The position numbers were made by a program, and so were the translations under genes. From Flavobacteriaceae bacterium (GTDB lineage: Bacteria > Bacteroidota > Bacteroidia > Flavobacteriales > Flavobacteriaceae), in NCBI GenBank assembly GCA_020435965.1, contig JAGQYS010000010.1, positions 12,687-76,686 of the forward strand: a stretch of 64,000 nt of DNA, read 5' to 3'. This document shows, piece after piece, positions 21,146-51,593 of this stretch (position 1 is its first letter; the number at the start of each line of letters is the position of its first letter). Below the pieces are notes generated by a model. The model was not told where the DNA came from. It made no database searches and was given only the letters and a program-made list of their open reading frames with translations.

Positions 21146-21244
21146 TGTCATTCCGCACTGTCCCACTGAGCGCAGTCGAAGTGTGATGCGGAATCCATTA
21201 TAATTAAAAACTAAAAGTAGATTCCTGCCTTCGCAGGAATGACA
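21146..21244. repeat. REP/MITE-like palindromic element (TGTCATTCC...GGAATGACA termini)
   Basis: tgtcattccgca...gagcgcagtcga...tgcggaatcc...gattcctgccttcgcaggaatgaca: terminal inverted repeats plus two internal hairpins. Fills the whole kynU-kmo spacer. Confidence 0.85.
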
Positions 21245-22648
21245 AAAATGAAAGAAAAAAAACAAAACATACTCATCATTGGTGCAGGACTTTGCGGAAG
21301 CTTACTAGCACTTCGTTTAGGGCAAAGAGGCTATAATGTAACCGTTTACGAAATGCGTCCAGACCTAAGGAAAGTAGACATTTCTGCTGGACGTTCTATC
21401 AACTTAGCGTTTTCAGATAGAGGCATTAAGGCTATGAAACTTGTTGGCATTCAAGACAAAGTAAAAGCGCTTTGCATACCTATGAATGGTCGTATGCTAC
21501 ATGATAAAGATGGCAATACATTTCTTTCAAATTATAGTGGACGAGACCATGAATATATCAATTCAATATCGAGAGGAGGTTTAAATGCTCTATTATTGGA
21601 TGAAGCCGAAAAACATAAAAATGTAAAGATTCATTTTAATAGAAAATGTAAGTCGGTTGATTTTGAAAAAACCACAGCCTTATTTAAGGATTATGATGGC
21701 AATTCAGAATTTGTTGAAGATGCAGATGTAATTATTGCTACAGATGGAGCAGGATCAGCAATGCGCAAAAGTTATTTTTTAAGCAAAAAATTCTTGTTTA
21801 GTTTTTCACAAGATTGGCTTACTCATGGTTATAAAGAGTTGAGCATATTACCAACAAAAGATGGAGATTATAAAACGTATAAAAACGCTTTACATATTTG
21901 GCCTCGTGGCGATTTTATGCTCATAGCATTACCTAATTTAGATGGTAGTTTTACAGTTACTTTATTTTTACATCATAGTGAAGGTGAATACAATTTTAGT
22001 AATTTAACCACACCTGAGATTGTCACTAAATTTTTCCAAAAAGAATTTCCAGATGCACTGGAACTCATGCCAAATCTGGTTGACGATTTCTTTGAGAATC
22101 CAACAGCAGCACTAGGCACTGTAAAATGTTCTCCTTGGCATTATAAAGGCAACACATTGTTAATGGGAGATGCTGCACATGCCATCGTTCCTTTTTATGG
22201 ACAAGGTATGAATGCCTCATTTGAAGATGTGGTTGAATTTGACAAAGTTCTTGACCAGAACCTCGATAATTGGAAAGCCATTTTTACAGCTTATGAAAAG
22301 TCACGTAAAAAAGATACTGATGCCATTGCAGATTTAGCAATTGACAACTTTCATGAAATGAAAGACCATGTAGCCAACCCAATATTTCAGAAAAAGCGTA
22401 AATTAGAAATGGCCTTAGAGAAACATTTTCCTGATGACTATTCTTCTAAATATTCATTAGTAACGTTTAATGAAGATATAAACTACAGAGCGGCAATGCT
22501 AAGAGGTCGTGCACAAGATAAAGCCATATTAAACATGCTTTCAGATGGTGAAATTGATCTTAAAGGTGATTTAAAAAGCATATTAGAAAAAGTAAAACAT
22601 GAAACCGAGGCCATTCTACAAGACGATAGAATTGCTGGATTAAAATAA
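21239..22648 (+). CDS. kmo: Kynurenine 3-monooxygenase
   Basis: 469 aa; FAD fold ILIIGAGLCGSLLALRL, GDAAHAIVPFYGQGMN motif. ATG 21239 lies inside the repeat terminus; ATG 21248 (MKEKKQN) is an alternative start. Confidence 0.9.
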   Translation: MTKMKEKKQNILIIGAGLCGSLLALRLGQRGYNVTVYEMRPDLRKVDISAGRSINLAFSDRGIKAMKLVGIQDKVKALCIPMNGRMLHDKDGNTFLSNYSGRDHEYINSISRGGLNALLLDEAEKHKNVKIHFNRKCKSVDFEKTTALFKDYDGNSEFVEDADVIIATDGAGSAMRKSYFLSKKFLFSFSQDWLTHGYKELSILPTKDGDYKTYKNALHIWPRGDFMLIALPNLDGSFTVTLFLHHSEGEYNFSNLTTPEIVTKFFQKEFPDALELMPNLVDDFFENPTAALGTVKCSPWHYKGNTLLMGDAAHAIVPFYGQGMNASFEDVVEFDKVLDQNLDNWKAIFTAYEKSRKKDTDAIADLAIDNFHEMKDHVANPIFQKKRKLEMALEKHFPDDYSSKYSLVTFNEDINYRAAMLRGRAQDKAILNMLSDGEIDLKGDLKSILEKVKHETEAILQDDRIAGLK

Positions 22649-23067: not shown

Positions 23068-23142
23068 TGTCATTCCGACAGAGCGCAGCGACGAGGAATC
23101 TCATCATTGGATTTCTCAATTGTTCCTCATGTTGAAATGACA
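23068..23142. repeat. REP/MITE-like palindromic element, same family as 47715-47792
   Basis: tgtcattccgacagagcgcagcgacgaggaatctc...atttctcaattgttcctcatgttgaaatgaca; termini TGTCAT/ATGACA; shares the right half almost verbatim with the element at 47715. Confidence 0.85.
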
Positions 23143-23222
23143 ATACTTAATATTAAAATTACCTATATTTAGATAACCAACCTCAAACCAACCTTAGCTT
23201 AATCACTTTTTAATTATAAACT

Positions 23223-24702: not shown

Positions 24703-25436
24703 TGATTAAATTCTTACGTCATTTCCGCAAAACACTAATCTCAGAAAACAAAATGGGTAAATACTTCAAATACGCTATTGGTGAAATTCTATTAGTAGTT
24801 ATAGGAATTCTTATTGCATTACAAATTAATAATTGGAACGAACAACGTAAAGCAGAAAAATTAGGTCAAGATTATTTAAAAGGCATTAAAAGTGACCTTA
24901 CTAAAGATTTTGTATTGCTCGACTCAATTCTAAAAGGATACAGTAATGATATTAGTCTTATTAATTCAATTGATAATGAGTTTGAAAAACCCATTTATGA
25001 AATTAACCCTAAGTATAAACAGGTCTTAATTGAACCTGACACCAGTAGAACAAAACACTTGTTTTATAGAGGGATTTCTTTTAGACCAATACAAGCAACT
25101 TATAGTTCTTTGGTGGCAGATGGTAAATCCAGTCTAATAAAAAACCGTGATCTTTTTGAAGTCATTCAAGAGATTTACGATGAACGCCACAACCGCATTG
25201 AAAGTGTTTATGAATCCTTTAAAGCTAGTGAAAATCGCATTCATTGGAACTATGCTTACGAAAAGAAAAACTGGAACTATACAGATTTATTAAACTCTAA
25301 AAACGACAAAATATTTTTAGACCTATTTAATTTCACCGAAATTAAATACTTCTATAGTCAACATTTACTAAACCTCAGAAAAAAAATGACAGAAGTTATT
25401 ACTTTAATTGATAAAGAAATAAACCAAATTAAATGA
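24702..25436 (+). CDS. MIKFF...NNWNE family single-pass membrane protein, copy 3
   Basis: 244 aa; MIKFLRHFRKTLISENKMGKYFKYAIGEILLVVIGILIALQINNWNE; TAATG overlap with copy 2. Confidence 0.8.
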   Translation: MIKFLRHFRKTLISENKMGKYFKYAIGEILLVVIGILIALQINNWNEQRKAEKLGQDYLKGIKSDLTKDFVLLDSILKGYSNDISLINSIDNEFEKPIYEINPKYKQVLIEPDTSRTKHLFYRGISFRPIQATYSSLVADGKSSLIKNRDLFEVIQEIYDERHNRIESVYESFKASENRIHWNYAYEKKNWNYTDLLNSKNDKIFLDLFNFTEIKYFYSQHLLNLRKKMTEVITLIDKEINQIK

Positions 25437-26227
25437 TTAAATTCTTCCGTCATATTAGAAAATCGTTAATCGAAAAGAACAAAATGGGAAAGTACTTTAA
25501 ATACGCTATTGGTGAAATCATTTTGGTAGTTATCGGAATTTTAATTGCCTTAGGTATTAATAACTGGAATGAAAATAGAAAACAAAAGCTTGAAGAAAAA
25601 ATTATATTAGCTCAATTACATACCGAGTTTAACAGCAACCTTAAACAATTAAATCAAAAAATTGAACTAAAAAAAGAAATCATTAATTCGGCTTTAAAAC
25701 TATTTAAATATATAGATTTTGAAGAACTTAGAAACAAAGATAGTATCGATTATTATTTAGCCAGAACCATCCCATACACAACATTCGATCCAATTGTAAA
25801 CGAAATAACACTGTCCAATCAATTAAACCTATTACAAAATGACAGTTTAAAACAAAAACTTACTTATTGGACTTCTGAATTAGCCGATAATAGAGAAGAT
25901 GAATTAACTTGGAAATACTACCGTGAAAATAAATACATTCCATTTTTAGTAGAACATTACCAACTTAGAACCATTAGAAATCTTGCCAATCAATCAAATT
26001 TATTAGAAAAATATTTAATCGAAGAAAACACTTCTAACATTGTTGCTAAAATTGGAAAATCGAAGTATGAAGAAAATTATAATACATTATTAAATCTGCC
26101 AAATTTTGAGGATCACATAGAAAGATGTGTCACACAAAATAGGCATTCGCTTAATCAATCGTTAATTTTAAGAAAAAAAATAATGCAAATTATTGGTATC
26201 TTGGATCATGAAATCAAGCATCGATAA
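25433..26227 (+). CDS. MIKFF...NNWNE family single-pass membrane protein, copy 4 (full-length paralogue of copy 8)
   Basis: 264 aa; ATGA overlap with copy 3. The C-terminal domain aligns along its whole length with the 50076-50879 product. Confidence 0.8.
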   Translation: MIKFFRHIRKSLIEKNKMGKYFKYAIGEIILVVIGILIALGINNWNENRKQKLEEKIILAQLHTEFNSNLKQLNQKIELKKEIINSALKLFKYIDFEELRNKDSIDYYLARTIPYTTFDPIVNEITLSNQLNLLQNDSLKQKLTYWTSELADNREDELTWKYYRENKYIPFLVEHYQLRTIRNLANQSNLLEKYLIEENTSNIVAKIGKSKYEENYNTLLNLPNFEDHIERCVTQNRHSLNQSLILRKKIMQIIGILDHEIKHR

Positions 26228-30435: not shown

Positions 30436-30510
30436 TGTCACCTCGAGCGCAGTCGAGAGGTCTTTTTTATAAAATAATTTTAATAGGTCTCGACTGCGCT
30501 CGACCAGACA
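30436..30510. repeat. REP/MITE-like palindromic element with GAGCGCAGTCGAGA core
   Basis: tgtcacctcgagcgcagtcgagaggtc...(AT-rich loop)...ggtctcgactgcgctcgaccagaca: 16-nt perfect arms (tcgagcgcagtcgaga); creates the false N-terminal extension of ORF 30435. Confidence 0.85.
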
Positions 30511-44149: not shown

Positions 44150-44511
44150 GAGACAGCGTGTATAATGTAAGTAATTATTCCCCAAATGGTGTAAGGTTCA
44201 GATGGCCTTTTAGAAAAGCGCTTTACCTTAAATTCGCCTTCTTCAACAGCTAGTACCAAACCGTTTTCTTTTGGTGTTAATGACCTGTCAATTATCAAAA
44301 CATCGTTATTGTGGATATTAAACCCTGAAAGACCATCACCATCAATACGAACAAAAAATGTGGCGTCTGTATTTTTTATAAGATGCTCATGCAAATCTAT
44401 GGTATGCTCCAGATAATGTGTGGCAGGACTTGGGAAACCCGTTTGTTTGGAGACCTCTGGAGTATGCTTTGCTTTTGCTCTTTTAAGTTTATTAAATGCG
44501 ATTAAATCCAT
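44146..44511 (-). CDS. umuD: UmuD-like S24 peptidase-fold protein with Gly at the catalytic serine position
   Basis: 121 aa; gapless alignment with E. coli UmuD from GFPSPA to VKK. Residue 60 is Gly (codon GGT at 44334-44332) where UmuD has Ser60; Lys97 equivalent retained; positions 24/25 are Thr-Gly instead of Cys-Gly. Confidence 0.8.
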   Translation of the reverse strand: MDLIAFNKLKRAKAKHTPEVSKQTGFPSPATHYLEHTIDLHEHLIKNTDATFFVRIDGDGLSGFNIHNNDVLIIDRSLTPKENGLVLAVEEGEFKVKRFSKRPSEPYTIWGIITYIIHAVS

Positions 44512-44631
44512 GCTTAAAATTAAACAAATTGAAGGTAAAAGAATAGGATTTTTTTAAATAAAAGTTCATTGAGATATTCTACAGCAGACTCTCAGATAAC
44601 GTGTAGCTTTGGATAAAATGATATGGCTTTT

Positions 44632-45606
44632 TTAGCTTTCAGGAAACCCATTTAAAGCGAGGGTTTCTAATTCTTTATTTTCATTTTCGAAAATAAAAAA
44701 CACTTTCAATTCAGGATGTGTTTTTAAAAGCTCTGTTACCTTTTCAATTCCCATAGCTTGAAATGCAGTAGCATAAGCATCAGCAGTCATGCAATCATTA
44801 GCTATTACAGATACGCTTAGCACATTTGTTTTACTTGGATAACCTGTTTTGGTATCAATGATATGTGCATAACGATTGCCATTTTCATCAAGTTTAAATT
44901 TTCTATAAGTTCCAGAGGTTGCCATAGCTCCATCTTCTAAATTTATAGCCTTAATAACAGATTGAGAGCCATCAAAATTTGGTTTGTCAATACCAACCAT
45001 CCAATTGGATTGCTTTTCTTTGTTTGTGCCTTTGCAGCGTATCTCTCCTCCTATTTCAACGAGATAGTTATTAACATTTTGAGATTCTAAAAATTCAGCA
45101 ATCACATCTACAGCATAGCCTTTGGCAATAGCATTAAAATCTAAAAACGTATTCAGATTCTCTTTTGAAATAGCGTTCCTTCTCAACGTTACCTTATCTA
45201 AACCAACGGAAAGCATCAAACTATCAATTTTTAGGCTATCCAAGGATACAATTTTCCCTTCAGGCCCAAAATCCCAAGCGTTTACAACAGCTCCAATAGT
45301 TGGGTCAAAAGCTCCATAAGTAGCGTCGTAAATTGCTTTTGAAGTATTAAAAACATTGGTAAAGTGCGCATCAACCTCAACAGCTTCATTTCTGTTTATT
45401 TTAGAAATATCTGAGTTTTCAATGTAAGTTGACATGGATTTGTTTATCACATAAAACAGGCTGTCAAACTGCTTTTCGTAATTTTCATTACTATCATAAA
45501 TTACGCTATAAGAAGTACCAAAAACCTGACCTGAAAGTTTAGTGTTTTTAGGCTCTTTCTTACAAGAAAAAATTGATATCAATAATAAAATTATAACCTT
45601 TTTCAT
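44632..45606 (-). CDS. apbE: FAD:protein FMN transferase (flavinylates NqrB/NqrC), lipoprotein
   Basis: 324 aa; lipobox LISIFSC; ATSGTYRKF...YAHIIDTKTGYP and ADAYATA blocks typical of ApbE. Confidence 0.9.
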   Translation of the reverse strand: MKKVIILLLISIFSCKKEPKNTKLSGQVFGTSYSVIYDSNENYEKQFDSLFYVINKSMSTYIENSDISKINRNEAVEVDAHFTNVFNTSKAIYDATYGAFDPTIGAVVNAWDFGPEGKIVSLDSLKIDSLMLSVGLDKVTLRRNAISKENLNTFLDFNAIAKGYAVDVIAEFLESQNVNNYLVEIGGEIRCKGTNKEKQSNWMVGIDKPNFDGSQSVIKAINLEDGAMATSGTYRKFKLDENGNRYAHIIDTKTGYPSKTNVLSVSVIANDCMTADAYATAFQAMGIEKVTELLKTHPELKVFFIFENENKELETLALNGFPES

Positions 45607-45632
45607 AGTGAAATTAATTCCAGTCTATTAAC

Positions 45633-45665
45633 AGATTGCCACGTCGTAAACTCCTCGCAATGACA
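45633..45665. repeat. Solo half-copy of the AGATTGCCACG...CTCGCAATGACA element
   Basis: agattgccacgtcgtaaactcctcgcaatgaca matches the right arm of the element at 29266-29336. Confidence 0.65.
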
Positions 45666-45667
45666 CT

Positions 45668-46045
45668 TCAATTTAAATTAGTATCAACAACTTGAATGCC
45701 ATTGTACTCAATAAGATAATCTTCGTTTAAGTAAATTGGTAAATCTTCACCTTTAGGATTGCCAAGACCTACTCCTGCATACAACACTTTAGCATCTTTT
45801 TCCCTAGCATGCTTTTTAAAGGTCTCCATCCAAACCACATCATAATTATTTGGGTTTTCAGGTAAGATTACAGCTCTAACTATCACAAAAAAGTACTGGC
45901 TATTTTTGTCAACACATACAAACTGAGGATGTTTTTTTAGTTTACTGTTTATGGCAACAAACTCAAAGCCTCTGTTTTCCAGATCTTTACCAACATGATT
46001 CATGGCCAAATTATGTAATTCTTGTGTTGTAAGTGCAATACTCAT
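45668..46045 (-). CDS. Hypothetical cytoplasmic protein
   Basis: 125 aa; no signal peptide or recognised motif; directly upstream of apbE on the same strand. Confidence 0.35.
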   Translation of the reverse strand: MSIALTTQELHNLAMNHVGKDLENRGFEFVAINSKLKKHPQFVCVDKNSQYFFVIVRAVILPENPNNYDVVWMETFKKHAREKDAKVLYAGVGLGNPKGEDLPIYLNEDYLIEYNGIQVVDTNLN

Positions 46046-46155
46046 AATGCAAAAATACTATTTATAAAATGATAGATAAAATTGTTTAACTTTAAATGCT
46101 ACAACCAACCAAAGCTACACGTTAACTAAATACTACTTACAACTAGTGTAAGTAT

Positions 46156-46938
46156 ATGATTAAATTTTTTCGTCGTATTAGACAACGATTGGTTTCTGAA
46201 AGCAAATTTTCTAAATACATATTATACGCCATTGGTGAAATTATTCTCGTAGTTATCGGAATTCTTTTAGCGCTTCAAATAAATAACTGGAATCAACAAC
46301 GAATTGAAGACAAAAAAGAGATAGAACTACTTATCGATCTAAAAGATGAATTTAAAAATAATTTAACCGAATTGGAAGAGTCTATTAACATCAATAAAAA
46401 AGTTACTCAATCCTGCGTTGACCTTACCAATATTATCAGGTCAAATTCATTATCCAAAAAACCTGATGTTGTAGATAAACTATTGATCTCAATTGGCAAT
46501 TTTAATTCTTTTGATGCCAAAACTGGAGTTTCAAGCGAAATAGTTAACTCTGGCAAATTGAGCATTTTAAAAAACGAAGCCCTAAGAATACAATTAAACA
46601 ATTGGTTAACCATAATTATTGACTCTGAAGAAGATATTCTTTTTAGGTCAGACAACTACACGATTAGCCTAATGCCTTTTTTGATGAAGCGGTTTCCGCT
46701 CGCAAATGGAGAGCTTACCAAAAAACTACCTTTTGATAGGAACAACAAATTGCAAACATACCAAGAAAAATCGCCTTTTGAAGCTGATTTAAACCAAGAG
46801 GATTTAATGGAATTTGAAAATCAGATCTGGCACCATAAACATAATCAAGATTATGTTGCTATCAACGAACTAAACCTAAAGGATTTTATTCTGGCCACAA
46901 TTGGTATGATTGAAAACGAGTTAAACAAAAAGTTATAA
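46156..46938 (+). CDS. MIKFF...NNWNE family single-pass membrane protein, copy 5
   Basis: 260 aa; MIKFFRRIRQRLVSESKFSKYILYAIGEIILVVIGILLALQINNWNQ. Confidence 0.8.
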   Translation: MIKFFRRIRQRLVSESKFSKYILYAIGEIILVVIGILLALQINNWNQQRIEDKKEIELLIDLKDEFKNNLTELEESININKKVTQSCVDLTNIIRSNSLSKKPDVVDKLLISIGNFNSFDAKTGVSSEIVNSGKLSILKNEALRIQLNNWLTIIIDSEEDILFRSDNYTISLMPFLMKRFPLANGELTKKLPFDRNNKLQTYQEKSPFEADLNQEDLMEFENQIWHHKHNQDYVAINELNLKDFILATIGMIENELNKKL

Positions 46939-47679
46939 ATGATTAAATTCTTTAGAAAAATACGCTACAACCTCATGGAAACAGGAAAAACTGGTAAATA
47001 CCTAAAATATGCCATTGGCGAAATTATTCTCGTAATGATTGGTATTCTTTTAGCACTACAAGTAAACAATTGGAATCAAGATCGATTAAACACTATCGAA
47101 AAAAAGGAGTTGCTCTCAAAACTACACTTTGAGTTTAAATCCAATAAAAAAGCTATTGAAACTTTTAGAATTGCTGAAGACAAAGCCATGAGTTCAAGTA
47201 TTGAATTAATCAATCTTGTTGGAGCTACTAAACAAGAGTTATCTAAACATAATCTCGATAGCTTATTTTTTGAATCTTTTCCTGCAAATGAATTGGCTTT
47301 TGCTAATAATGCTGTAAACGATATAGTACAAAATGGACATCTTAATCTTTTTAAAGACGAAGAAATTACAACATTGTTGTACCAATGGAATTCGCTTTCC
47401 GAGATTAGAAAAACCCGATTCGAAAAACTGGATTTATGGAACAACGAGCAGTTTATCCCCTTTTTATTGCCTTTTATTTCAATGAGGGAAATGGACAAAT
47501 ATTCCAATTACAAATGGACTGGAAAATCTAAAGTAAAGCCAGATTATTACCCTTTGTTCCAGAAAGTTGAATTTGAAAACCTATTGGACAATTCTTTATG
47601 GTTACATCAACAGATTGTTGAGAGGCTTAATGAAACTGAAAAACTGATTGATGAGATAATCAATGCCACAAAACCTTAA
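46939..47679 (+). CDS. MIKFF...NNWNE family single-pass membrane protein, copy 6
   Basis: 246 aa; ATG immediately follows the copy-5 stop (TAAATG); N-terminal 46 aa are identical to copy 7 except for 1 residue. Confidence 0.8.
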   Translation: MIKFFRKIRYNLMETGKTGKYLKYAIGEIILVMIGILLALQVNNWNQDRLNTIEKKELLSKLHFEFKSNKKAIETFRIAEDKAMSSSIELINLVGATKQELSKHNLDSLFFESFPANELAFANNAVNDIVQNGHLNLFKDEEITTLLYQWNSLSEIRKTRFEKLDLWNNEQFIPFLLPFISMREMDKYSNYKWTGKSKVKPDYYPLFQKVEFENLLDNSLWLHQQIVERLNETEKLIDEIINATKP

Positions 47680-47685
47680 CTATTT

Positions 47686-47714
47686 ATGATTAAATTCTTT
47701 AGAAACATATCAAC
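47686..47714 (+). pseudogene. Orphan 5' stub of a MIKFF-family gene, truncated at the MITE-like element
   Basis: atgattaaattctttagaaac (MIKFFRN) is identical to the copy-6 start for 20 nt, then runs straight into the repeat at 47715. Confidence 0.6.
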
Positions 47715-47792
47715 TGTCATGTTGAGCGCAGTCGAGACATCTCATTATGAGATTTCTCAATCGTCACTTCGTTTCCTCATGTCGAAATGACA
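47715..47792. repeat. REP/MITE-like palindromic element, same family as 23068-23142
   Basis: tgtcatgttgagcgcagtcgagacatctcattatgagatttctcaatcgtcacttcgtttcctcatgtcgaaatgaca. Confidence 0.85.
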
Positions 47793-47798
47793 AACAAA

Positions 47799-48518
47799 AT
47801 GATAAAGTTCTTTAGAAAAATACGATACAACCTTATGGAAACAGGAAAAACTGGTAAATACCTAAAATATGCCATTGGCGAAATTATTCTCGTAATGATT
47901 GGTATTCTTTTAGCACTACAAGTAAGCAATTGGAATGAAAAACGCAAAGACAGGATAAAAGAGCAATCCGTTTTATCATCAATCAATAAAGAATTTAAAA
48001 TGAACAAAATTCAATTTGATTCTGTTTTATACTTTCATAAAAAGGCTTATAATGGCTGCAACAAATTGATTGCAATGTTTCCCATTGATATTGAAAGGGA
48101 TAATTTAGATACCATTTCAAAGCACCTTTGGGATGCTGCATATAATTGGACGTTTAACCCTTCACAAGGAACTATAAACAGCATTATAAATACATCATCT
48201 TTTGATATTATAAGCAATGATGAGCTTAGAGGTTTGCTGGTATCTTGGTCAGACATCGTTTTGGATTTACAAGAAGATGAAATTCAGAATAAGAAAGTAG
48301 TATTTGAGCAGATGGATCCTTTTTTTGCAGGAAACATTGACTATAATTTTAATTTAAAAGACAAGCGAAATAATTTAAACGTACTAGAATCCATTAAATT
48401 TGAATATCTCATTAGGTTAAGGCAAGCTCTTCTTTGGGAACTTTTTAAACCAGGAGCAGAAATTGAAGTTTTAGAGAAAAACCTAGAAAGAATTATTGAA
48501 CTTACATCAGAAAAATAG
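47799..48518 (+). CDS. MIKFF...NNWNE family single-pass membrane protein, copy 7
   Basis: Track ORF begins at 47787 inside the repeat terminus (MTNK); the family start MIKFFRKIRYNL is ATG 47799. Confidence 0.8.
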   Translation: MIKFFRKIRYNLMETGKTGKYLKYAIGEIILVMIGILLALQVSNWNEKRKDRIKEQSVLSSINKEFKMNKIQFDSVLYFHKKAYNGCNKLIAMFPIDIERDNLDTISKHLWDAAYNWTFNPSQGTINSIINTSSFDIISNDELRGLLVSWSDIVLDLQEDEIQNKKVVFEQMDPFFAGNIDYNFNLKDKRNNLNVLESIKFEYLIRLRQALLWELFKPGAEIEVLEKNLERIIELTSEK

Positions 48519-48538
48519 AAACTCTTAAACCAACACAC

Positions 48539-49966
48539 ATGAAAAAAGCTTTAAAACTATTAGGAATACTAATACTCATCGTTTTAGCTGTCTTAATTTT
48601 TAATACCTTAAGACTAAGCTCAAAACAAGTAGCTCCACAAGCCTTAGAAAGTGTCAACCTACCAAGTGATGCCTTTCACAACCTTTCAAAAGCCATACAA
48701 TTTCCAACCGTTTCTTTCAGTGAAGATGCCATTCCAGACTCAACAGCATTTTTTGGTTTTCACAGATTTCTTGAAGAAACCTTTCCGTTAACACATACTA
48801 ATTTATCTCTAGAAAAAATAAACGATTACAGTTTACTCTATAAATGGGAAGGTTCAGACGCTTCAAAAAAACCTATTATCTTAATGTCACATCAAGACGT
48901 AGTTCCTGTTGATGAGCCAACTTTAAACGATTGGGAAGCCGAGCCGTTTTCAGGTAAGATTACTGACACGCATATTATTGGTCGTGGCACAATGGACGAT
49001 AAAGGTACATTGATAGGATTATTAGAGGCTGTGGAAAAATTACTCGAAGAAGGTTTTGTACCAACTCGAACCATTTATCTTGCTTCTGGACACGATGAAG
49101 AAGTTGGTGGAAGCAATGGTGCTGCTGCCATCGCAGCACATTTAAAAGCAAAAGGAATACATGCAGCCATGACACTCGATGAAGGTGGTTTTATTGCTGA
49201 AGATTTAGTTCCAGGAGTAAATAATCCTGTTGCTATGATTAATCTATCCGAAAAAGGTTTTGCTTCATTTAGGTTGATTGTAGAAACCACTGGAGGACAC
49301 AGCTCGCAACCTCCACGCGAAAATACCATTGGCATGTTGGCACAAGCCATTGTAGATTTAGAAAACAATCAGTTACCTTACAAATTGGTTAATCCTGTTG
49401 ATTACCAATTAGAATATATGGGAGCTGAACTACCCTTTTTTCAAAAAATGGCTTTTGCCAATCCTTGGTTGTTTAAAAAACCAATATTGGAAGCTTTAAA
49501 TGCGCATACCACGACTGCTCCAACCATAATTGATGGAGGAGTGAAAAACAATGTGATTCCAACAGTTGCTGAAGCAACCATTAATTTTAGAATTCTACCT
49601 GGTGAAACCATAGAATCTACACAGCAACATATTGAAGCTGCCATTTCAGATAAAATAAGAGTAGAACCTGTTGGTTTTTTAACCAATCCATCTCCTGTTT
49701 CAAGTATCGATTCTGAAGCTTTTAAAATATTAGAACAAACCATTCGTGATATGTTTCCAACAAGTATTGTTGTTCCAGGTTTAGTTGGTGGTGGCACTGA
49801 TGCCAGATATTTTTATGACATTTCAGATGATGTGTATCGTTTTTACCCTATTCGTATCGGTCCAGACAGCATGACCAGATTTCATGGTATTGACGAAAAA
49901 ATAAGTAAAGACAATTACAAAGAGATTATTGAATTTGCCTACCATTTAATAAAAAAGTTTAATTAA
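48539..49966 (+). CDS. M20/M25/M40-family metallopeptidase with N-terminal membrane anchor
   Basis: 475 aa; TM (LLGILILIVLAVLIF); SHQDVVPV, GRGTMDDKG, GHDEEVGG metal-binding blocks. Confidence 0.85.
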   Translation: MKKALKLLGILILIVLAVLIFNTLRLSSKQVAPQALESVNLPSDAFHNLSKAIQFPTVSFSEDAIPDSTAFFGFHRFLEETFPLTHTNLSLEKINDYSLLYKWEGSDASKKPIILMSHQDVVPVDEPTLNDWEAEPFSGKITDTHIIGRGTMDDKGTLIGLLEAVEKLLEEGFVPTRTIYLASGHDEEVGGSNGAAAIAAHLKAKGIHAAMTLDEGGFIAEDLVPGVNNPVAMINLSEKGFASFRLIVETTGGHSSQPPRENTIGMLAQAIVDLENNQLPYKLVNPVDYQLEYMGAELPFFQKMAFANPWLFKKPILEALNAHTTTAPTIIDGGVKNNVIPTVAEATINFRILPGETIESTQQHIEAAISDKIRVEPVGFLTNPSPVSSIDSEAFKILEQTIRDMFPTSIVVPGLVGGGTDARYFYDISDDVYRFYPIRIGPDSMTRFHGIDEKISKDNYKEIIEFAYHLIKKFN

Positions 49967-49983
49967 TGATAAAGTTTTTTAGA
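49966..49983 (+). pseudogene. Orphan 5' stub of a MIKFF-family gene overlapping the M20 stop (TAATG)
   Basis: atgataaagttttttaga = MIKFFR, then unrelated sequence and a stop after 33 codons. Confidence 0.55.
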
Positions 49984-50075
49984 TTATCGAAACAAAATTT
50001 TGCTACTGCAAAATCAAATGTCCAATGGACATTTGGTGGAGATAGCCGCTTGCGGAAAAAATAGAAACTAAAAGT

Positions 50076-50879
50076 ATGATAAAATTCTTCAGAAAAATAA
50101 GATACAATCTTATGGAAACTGGTAAAACTTCAAAATATTTAAAGTATGCTATTGGCGAAATTATTCTTGTAGTTATTGGTATCCTCATTGCTTTAAGCAT
50201 TAATAATTGGAATGAGTCAAGGAAAGAAGCTATTCAAGAAACTGCAATACTAAACCAATTACATATTGAATTTAGAAGCAATTTAAGACAATTGGATGAA
50301 AAAATTGATTTGAAAAAGGAAGCGATAAATTCATCATTACAGCTATTTAAATATATTGATTTTCAAAATCTTCGAAATAAAGATAGCGTTGATTATCATT
50401 TAGCAAGGACATTGCCATTTTCTACATTTGACCCAATAGTAAATGACTTGGCTAGTTCAGGAGAATTAAGAATGATAAAAAACGATAGTTTAAAACAAAA
50501 GCTCTCTTTTTGGACGTCTGAAGTAAAGGATTTACGAGAAGAAGAGGTGGCTTGGCAAGAGCATAGAAATAATAAATATGAACCTTTCCTTATTAAGCAT
50601 TATCAACTAAGAACCATTAGAAATATCGCCAATAAAACGAACGTTTTAGGAAAATATTTAATTGAAGACAAGTCGACCATCATGAAACCTGTAATTGGTG
50701 TCACTAAACATCCTGAAAATTTTAACCTATTGTTGAATCACCCAGACTTTGAAGATCATATAGAAAGGTGCTTAACAAAAAATAATCATGCGCTTAACCA
50801 AGCTTCTATTTTGAGAAAAAGATTAATAGAAATATTAGACATATTAAATTCTGAATTAAAGAATACAAACAATGATTAA
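50076..50879 (+). CDS. MIKFF...NNWNE family single-pass membrane protein, copy 8 (paralogue of copy 4)
   Basis: 267 aa; MIKFFRKIRYNLMETGKTSKYLKYAIGEIILVVIGILIALSINNWNE; the C-terminal domain aligns along its whole length with copy 4. Confidence 0.8.
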   Translation: MIKFFRKIRYNLMETGKTSKYLKYAIGEIILVVIGILIALSINNWNESRKEAIQETAILNQLHIEFRSNLRQLDEKIDLKKEAINSSLQLFKYIDFQNLRNKDSVDYHLARTLPFSTFDPIVNDLASSGELRMIKNDSLKQKLSFWTSEVKDLREEEVAWQEHRNNKYEPFLIKHYQLRTIRNIANKTNVLGKYLIEDKSTIMKPVIGVTKHPENFNLLLNHPDFEDHIERCLTKNNHALNQASILRKRLIEILDILNSELKNTNND

Positions 50880-51593
50880 ATTCTTTCGTCATATTCGTAA
50901 ATCACTCCTTATGGAAAACAAAACAGGAAAGTACTTTAAATACGCTATTGGCGAAATTGTACTCGTTGTAATTGGTATTCTTATTGCTTTAAGCATTAAT
51001 AATTGGAATGAAAAACGAAAAACAGAAGAAAAAAAACCCATAGGTTTTTATTAGGCTTAAAAGCCGATTTACAAAACGATTTAGAAGCCATCAATTTTGT
51101 GATTGATATCCAAAATTCACGATTTAATGCTATTAAAGATTTAATTGATTTTAGCAACTCGCCAAATGTAAAAACCATCATTGAAAATGACTCCATGAAA
51201 GCATCACAAGGTGGTAGGAATTTTACTTTTTTTCCTGTTGTTGGTTCGTATAAAGCAGCCAGCAATACAGGATTAATTGATAATATAAAAGATGAACAAC
51301 TCAAAAACAATATTTTAAACTTATATGAACATTTATATGTAAGAATAAATTATAATGGAGAAATTAATGATAATAGATACGAAATGGTTGATTGGGAAAG
51401 CAGGAACTATATTGATTATACAAAAAAGGAACTTGTGTTTGATAAGCGTGGACTGCTCGATAAGGATTTCGTGAATCAATTAGGCTTTTTAAATAGATTT
51501 GTAAGAGTATATATTGGACGATGTGATGACACAAAATTAGCGATAGAAACAACCTTAAAGGAAATAAACAATTATTTAATGGTTTATGATTAA
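50872..51593 (+). pseudogene. MIKFF-family copy 9, split by a frameshift at an A8 tract
   Basis: ORF 50872-51054 carries the anchor module and stops 6 codons after A8 (51029-51036). Frame 0 is open from 51012 and continues as ...HRFLLGLKADLQNDLEAINFVIDIQNSRFN... into ORF 51099-51593, matching the juxtamembrane pattern of copy 3 (YLKGIKSDLTKD). One extra A or two fewer As would restore about 241 aa. Confidence 0.75.

Follow-up and report, generated by a model that had tools for sequence, protein, structure and literature searches.

Copies 6 and 7 of the DUF6090 family, two tandem neighbours in the analysed window (the whole 64,000-nt stretch of DNA from a Flavobacteriaceae bacterium), share a nearly identical 5′ coding module in front of very divergent C-terminal parts. 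The best explanation, to which we assign a probability of roughly 0.8, is recent short-tract gene conversion, or a template switch, between the two genes. Gene conversion is here an ordinary mechanism in an uncharacterised family.

The genome is a Flavobacteriaceae metagenome-assembled genome (MAG) of 3.27 Mb, with 33% GC and 144 contigs, that contains 19 DUF6090 copies. Nine of these paralogues are located in the window, four at 23.2–26.2 kb (array A) and five at 46.2–51.6 kb, and their N-termini follow the pattern MIKFFRKIR...KY.KYAIGEI.LV.IGIL.AL...NNWN. Each DUF6090 protein consists of a near-invariant 46-residue N-terminal module, comprising a basic helix, one transmembrane helix and the NNWN motif, and a helical cassette of about 200 residues whose sequence differs greatly from copy to copy. 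Every intact copy starts at an ATG or GTG codon of its own and contains the full 46-codon module. Thousands of homologues with the same N-terminal module are present in Flavobacteriaceae such as Gaetbulibacter, Psychroserpens, Formosa and Winogradskyella. Proteins matching Pfam PF19578 are named ‘DUF6090 family protein’ in NCBI annotation; a profile search against NCBIfam matched no model, and no paper in the literature collection searched mentions DUF6090.

Relative to the PF19578 gathering cut-off of 23.5 bits, every paralogue of the window except copy 6 scores above the threshold, with 30–49 bits for copies 1–4, 46.6 bits for copy 5, 32.5 bits for copy 7 and 46.9 bits for copy 8, whereas copy 6 reaches only 21.0 bits. 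That copy 6 may nevertheless belong to PF19578 is suggested by its module, which is the same as that of copy 7 at 45 of 46 residues, by its cassette, which matches copy 8 at E = 1.8e-8, and by its orthologues, many of which carry the PF19578 annotation. Its score lies slightly below the cut-off owing to poor coverage of its cassette subfamily by the Pfam model.

Copies 5–8, together with the two stub starts and the 78-nt element described below, are on the forward strand. Copy 6 (46939–47679, 246 aa) is composed of the 46-codon 5′ anchor module (46939–47076) and the C-terminal cassette with the stop codon (47077–47679); in copy 7 (47799–48518, 239 aa), the corresponding parts are at 47799–47936 and 47937–48518. 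A longer open reading frame for copy 7 starts at the ATG at 47787, inside the repetitive element described below, and this ATG is probably not the real start. Copy 5 (46156–46938, 260 aa) is the upstream tandem neighbour of copy 6, and the modules of these two genes share only 69% identity. Copy 8 (50076–50879) served as an internal control for protein-level constraint. Copy 9 (50872–51593) is split into a 60-aa anchor ORF (50872–51054) and a 164-aa cassette ORF (51099–51593) and probably represents a pseudogene with a frameshift or a gene subject to phase variation. The cassettes of copy 4 (25433–26227) and copy 8, which belong to different arrays, share 60% identity over 216 aa, and no other cassette pair in the genome comes near this value; the DNA identity of their modules is nevertheless only 70%.

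The exact tract extends over 46975–47065 in copy 6, from codon 13 (ATG) into codon 43, of which it includes the first two bases, and over 47835–47925 in copy 7, so that the 91-nt perfect identity read from the letters in the original prediction is confirmed; this stretch would be the minimal conversion tract. Across the whole 138-nt module the two genes differ, as had also been reported, at five positions only (46944, 46947, 46965, 46974 and 47066): the mismatch at 47066 is followed by 10 further matching nucleotides (47067–47076), and the sequences diverge from 47077 on. Only one of these differences alters the protein (Asn43 to Ser); the other four are synonymous.

We compared the modules of all 19 genes at the DNA level and at synonymous sites, and copies 6 and 7 emerged as the outlier. 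Among the 171 module pairs, their identity (133/138, 96%) is followed by 86% for the next best pair, with a median of 69%, and their 91-nt exact run compares with at most 27 nt in each of the other 170 pairs. None of the 28 synonymous-capable codons in the tract differs, against a background of 27–50%; even at the lowest background rate seen, the probability of 0/28 is 1.5e-4. Pairs encoding an almost equal anchor protein differ synonymously at 13–17 codons, compared with four in copies 6 and 7: copy 6 and copy 8 share 41 of 46 residues yet have 17 synonymous-different codons and 30 nucleotide differences, and the C27 pair shares 43 of 46 residues with 13 such codons. The contrast drawn earlier with copies 2 and 3, a similar anchor encoded with many synonymous differences, also stands (37 of 46 residues the same, 15 synonymous-different codons, 34 nucleotide differences). 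The identity of copies 6 and 7 therefore goes beyond protein constraint, as originally claimed, and the identity, exact-run and synonymous-site comparisons exclude both chance and protein constraint as its cause. The few differences are, moreover, unevenly placed, with four in the first 36 nt of the module and none in the next 91 (Fisher p = 0.006), which points to a tract boundary inside the module. The two genes are adjacent and co-oriented, and the tracts form direct repeats 860 nt apart.

The cassettes have a different history. It had been proposed that the identity is restricted to the module and that the genes become unrelated directly after the NNWN codons; the restriction holds, but the parts that follow are very divergent members of the same family. 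Cassettes 6 and 7 share 18% amino acid identity, with a direct BLASTP E-value of 1.2, and each of them matches other DUF6090 copies at E-values of 1e-8 to 1e-11. Judged from these sequence matches, the two cassettes are anciently diverged paralogues and not unrelated sequences.

The cassette 6 subfamily is kept at 60–77% amino acid identity across Flavobacteriaceae, with orthologues in the congener G003 (75%) and in Flavobacteriaceae bacterium MAR_2010_72 (77%). In G003 the orthologue is located in a different, RidA-adjacent array, and in another genome it is found within a 12-gene array. Cassette 7 is 90% identical in protein and 87% in DNA to a gene on a JGI metagenome contig (L053) that has the same downstream M20 peptidase gene, and 73% identical in amino acids to a gene in a syntenic, ApbE-adjacent array of GCA_015221975.1; the synteny of cassette 7 and the M20 peptidase is old. 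In the five congeners searched, no close orthologue of copy 7 was found (best match, 31% amino acid identity). Since each cassette has its own orthologues, only the 5′ module has been homogenised. The RidA-adjacent array of G003 that holds the cassette 6 orthologue (G003:C120) corresponds to array A of the window, and the orthologue of the copy 1 cassette in G003:C120 has an anchor identical at 43 of 46 positions to the module of copies 6 and 7. With this arrangement, cassette position and the pairing of module and cassette are evidently not kept between species.

With the module of its paralogue, copy 7, the copy 6 module shares 96% identity, but with that of its orthologue in G003 only 78%, which is the signature of concerted evolution. 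This excess of paralogue over orthologue similarity is combined with an abrupt-edged tract that is homogenised at synonymous sites and gives way to unalignable sequence from 47077, the combination that characterises gene conversion. Of the two explanations offered originally, the better supported is that the 5′ module recently underwent gene conversion, given that the identity is confined to the module, the differences are clustered and both cassettes are old.

Under gene conversion, the 5′ module of one gene would have been overwritten, recently and non-reciprocally, over about 91–102 nt by the sequence of its neighbour, either by short-tract gene conversion of the RecA type or by template switching during replication, between the direct repeats 860 nt apart. 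The 5′ boundary of the transfer would lie between 46974 and 46975 and the 3′ boundary at 47066–47077, where homology ends, and the transfer would have left the old-lineage cassettes untouched. We infer both this molecular mechanism and neutral homogenisation rather than selection. On its 3′ side the tract ends where homology does, with only 10 identical bases beyond, which is awkward for classical two-sided conversion; a template switch or patchy mismatch repair fits as well.

A search of close relatives found no pre-conversion state, and hints at the donor come from the orthologues of the two cassettes. The closest cassette 7 orthologues carry the transmembrane sequence VMIGILLALQV, and the closest cassette 6 orthologues have VVIGILIALSI but share METGKTGKY with the module of copies 6 and 7. 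These hints conflict: the transmembrane haplotypes point to copy 7 as the donor to copy 6, whereas the cytoplasmic segment points in the opposite direction. The distribution suggests that the cytoplasmic half (METGKTGKY) may belong originally to the lineage of copy 6, and the transmembrane half (VMIGILLALQV) to that of copy 7, and the shared tract accordingly looks like a possible mosaic of both. If the halves of the tract are indeed native to different lineages, more than one event is implied.

A rearrangement is an unlikely source of the identity. It would require either a recent duplication of a module-bearing segment or the insertion of cassette 6 beside copy 7, along with the start of the gene that formerly followed it, through recombination within the module. 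Either route would leave cassette 6 between two near-identical modules. The region between the two genes invites such a reading, as an orphan stub start and a REP/MITE-like element are positioned exactly between copies 6 and 7, cassette 6 orthologues are found in other arrays (the RidA-adjacent one in G003 and the 12-gene array elsewhere), cassette 7 and the M20 peptidase gene form an old syntenic unit, and array content is clearly fluid. However, a single duplication should spread differences evenly, whereas all but one of the five fall within the first 36 nt; the similarity runs exactly from the ATG to NNWN, with unrelated sequence on both outer sides; and simple Campbell-type or insertion models fail to give the observed order of stub, element and complete module. 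A rearrangement needs at least two events and conversion one. The other explanation in the original prediction, a duplication followed by replacement of the 3′ cassette, is likewise less parsimonious than conversion.

The stub between the two genes (47686–47714) begins with ATGATTAAATTCTTTAGAAACATA..., encoding MIKFFRNI, at the place where the next array gene would begin. It is followed by a 78-nt palindromic REP/MITE-like element (47715–47792) with TGTCAT...ATGACA ends and the core GAGCGCAGTCGA. In a core-motif search of the genome, the core GAGCGCAGYCGA of these elements occurs 38 times, with both strands counted. In the window, elements with TGTCA...TGACA ends are present at 47715–47792, 23069–23143, 21150–21245 and 30436–30510; one of them precedes array A, and another separates copies 6 and 7. 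An Rfam scan of the 46–52 kb region returned nothing relevant and no family for the REP-like element, and a blastn-short search with the element matched only the element itself. A second orphan stub start, ATGATAAAGTTTTTTAGA (MIKFFR; 49967–49984), directly follows the stop codon of the M20 peptidase gene and uses the same rare ATA-AAG codons as the start of copy 7. It is conserved in the 87%-identical metagenome contig L053 (2087–2110) and is therefore an old footprint. A genome-wide search revealed only these two stubs, both in this cluster, the other matches being chance TTG. Taken with the REP-like element and the presence of a cassette 6 orthologue in a RidA-adjacent array, the stubs imply that the composition of the arrays is fluid.

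Selection on the DNA or RNA itself, for example on a regulatory RNA structure or a recombinase site in the 5′ module, is a very improbable cause of the identity. The region is at the 5′ end of the mRNA, and the module start is associated with the stub footprints; against this, synonymous sites vary freely among the remaining 17 copies (in the median pair, 50% of the codons for identical amino acids are different), the orthologues of both genes differ within the tract, and there is no Rfam match. Near-identical assemblies carry the 91-nt tract, and no exact copy of it was found in distant-strain orthologues. Scans of public metagenome and genome contigs, which may omit this and very near genomes, gave no exact match to a 49-nt piece of the tract.

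The remaining alternative is that two slightly different modules were collapsed, or joined chimerically through the repeat, during assembly. The genome is a MAG in 144 contigs, and one public scaffold breaks inside the tract; yet the same sequence, including the five distinguishing differences, is present in records of GCA_041392045.1, ERZ27309148 and ERZ28655656, the ENA contigs have k141-type names that imply a k of 141, longer than the 91–102-nt repeat (we take these names to denote a final MEGAHIT k of 141), and orthologous loci support the gene order. In GCA_041392045.1, contig JAWKMT010000007.1 differs by two SNPs over 45885–51518, neither of them in the modules, and both modules are identical. 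The ENA assemblies are identical to the window over 44439–50179 (ERZ27309150), 46836–50179 (ERZ27309148) and 47011–50518 (ERZ28655656). This check was made on public assemblies alone, and ERZ27309150 may be the source of this genome. The scaffold of ERZ28655656 starts within the copy 6 tract, which is the behaviour expected of an assembler at a genuine repeat. The presence of the tract in the records of three other accessions, together with the scaffold break inside the repeat, makes an artefact highly improbable.

Two further observations arose from these alignments. Between the window and GCA_041392045.1, about 98 of 100 differences (mismatches and many short indels) fall within approximately 1.1 kb, at 44812–45884; this divergent patch covers an ApbE-like lipoprotein gene and the start of a 125-aa gene and looks like a strain-level recombination patch. 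In ERZ27309148, nucleotides 1–99 of contig k141_25966 (L058) match the copy 6 cassette (47156–47254) and are joined, at an 11-nt microhomology (TAAACATAATC), to window sequence from 46836 onward, where copy 5 has its 3′ end; the rest of the contig is identical to the window. The junction is head-to-tail, with a 408-nt unit; a tandem duplication or a circular form could explain it, and so could a chimeric read at the contig end.

Module conversion seems to recur in the DUF6090 family. In this genome, mean module identity is 0.78 between tandem neighbours and 0.67 between non-neighbours (Mann–Whitney p = 0.006), and in G003, which has 25 copies, the corresponding values are 0.78 and 0.71 (p = 0.0006); the pairs are non-independent, and these p-values are rough. 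In neither genome do neighbouring cassettes exceed other cassettes in similarity (p = 0.12 in this genome and 0.90 in G003), and the effect on the modules therefore does not result from recent whole-gene duplication. Exact runs of 56 nt and 40 nt are found between neighbours in G003. For two orthologous pairs from this genome and G003, the cassettes are 92–93% identical in nucleotides and the modules only 80–83%, which suggests that the module was replaced in one lineage.

Among about 230 orthologues, the transmembrane haplotypes VVIGILIALQI, VVIGILIALSI and VMIGILLALQV are few, linked types that are found in both cassette subfamilies, with few intermediates. On trees built from the cassettes only, switches between M32-L37-V41 and V-I-I number at least 7 for cassette 6 and at least 21 for cassette 7, compared with means of 22 and 33, respectively, for shuffled labels, counts that tree error or epistasis could inflate. 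In GCA_015221975.1 (L054, 2431–4100), three consecutive array genes share the cytoplasmic sequence FRKIRQNLIM(E/K)N(K/Q)T, which is absent from orthologues elsewhere; this segment is likely another case of partial module homogenisation among neighbours.

The tuf genes and the rRNA operons are classic cases of concerted evolution. Ectopic or tandem gene conversion is known to drive concerted evolution in prokaryotic multigene families (PMC6053082, Commun Biol 2018). Copies 6 and 7 resemble these families in that a stretch of the paralogues is more similar within the genome than to the orthologues and has sharp edges, neighbours are favoured and both copies are kept. They differ in that homogenisation is limited to a 5′ module of about 100 nt, and what follows in each gene is an anciently diverged cassette. 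If conversion is the correct reading, the tract is a clean example, dated by its identity, of short-tract gene conversion in a bacterial tandem array, and the constant anchor of a very large, unstudied flavobacterial family would evolve in concert and be exchanged as a block, while the variable domains would be old and shuffled between arrays. The module sequence would then be unusable for inferring DUF6090 orthology. The 91-nt direct repeats are also potential breakpoints, both for assemblers and for the deletion of cassette 6.

A combination of a constant handle and a variable cassette is found in Neisseria pilE/pilS, in orphan cdiA-CT modules and in Rhs tips. As in these systems, a conserved 5′ segment precedes highly variable 3′ parts in DUF6090 genes, and homology in the constant part can mediate exchange. 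In contrast to them, every DUF6090 copy has a start codon and a complete module, and toxin or immunity features are absent. The arrangement also does not correspond to antigenic or effector switching from silent cassettes, as there is no single expression locus accompanied by start-less silent cassettes, only the two short stubs. It is rather doubtful, though conceivable, that the DUF6090 5′ module serves flavobacteria as a portable recombination handle for re-assorting, inserting and deleting periplasmic helical-bundle cassettes. If it did, the arrays would be a system for generating diversity in membrane-anchored proteins, and it would have left its footprints in the tract shared by copies 6 and 7, in the stub starts, in the greater similarity of neighbouring modules and in the recurrent switching of haplotypes.

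We also examined the predicted structure of copy 7. The AlphaFold2 model, built on 49 orthologues, is confident (pLDDT 90.5) and is predicted to contain a short N-terminal helix, a very long helix (residues 18–93) that includes the transmembrane segment, and a helical bundle. A Foldseek search of this model against the PDB gave no match better than E = 0.05. The best matches (E = 0.05–0.5, target-normalised TM-scores of 0.4–0.5) were designed bundles and the four-helix ligand-binding domains of chemoreceptors. The cassette was considered as a 4HB_MCP chemoreceptor ligand-binding domain, as in PcaY_PP or Tar, and rejected, with neither a significant fold match nor a Pfam match; in the model, its likeness to chemoreceptor domains appears to be that of a generic helical bundle only. 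The N-terminus is not type IV prepilin-like (G|(F/M)xxxE5) either: the Glu residue directly follows the Gly (AIGEI) and is not at position +5, and Pfam N_methyl gave no match at E ≤ 0.01. By the positive-inside rule, the cassette is predicted to face the periplasm.
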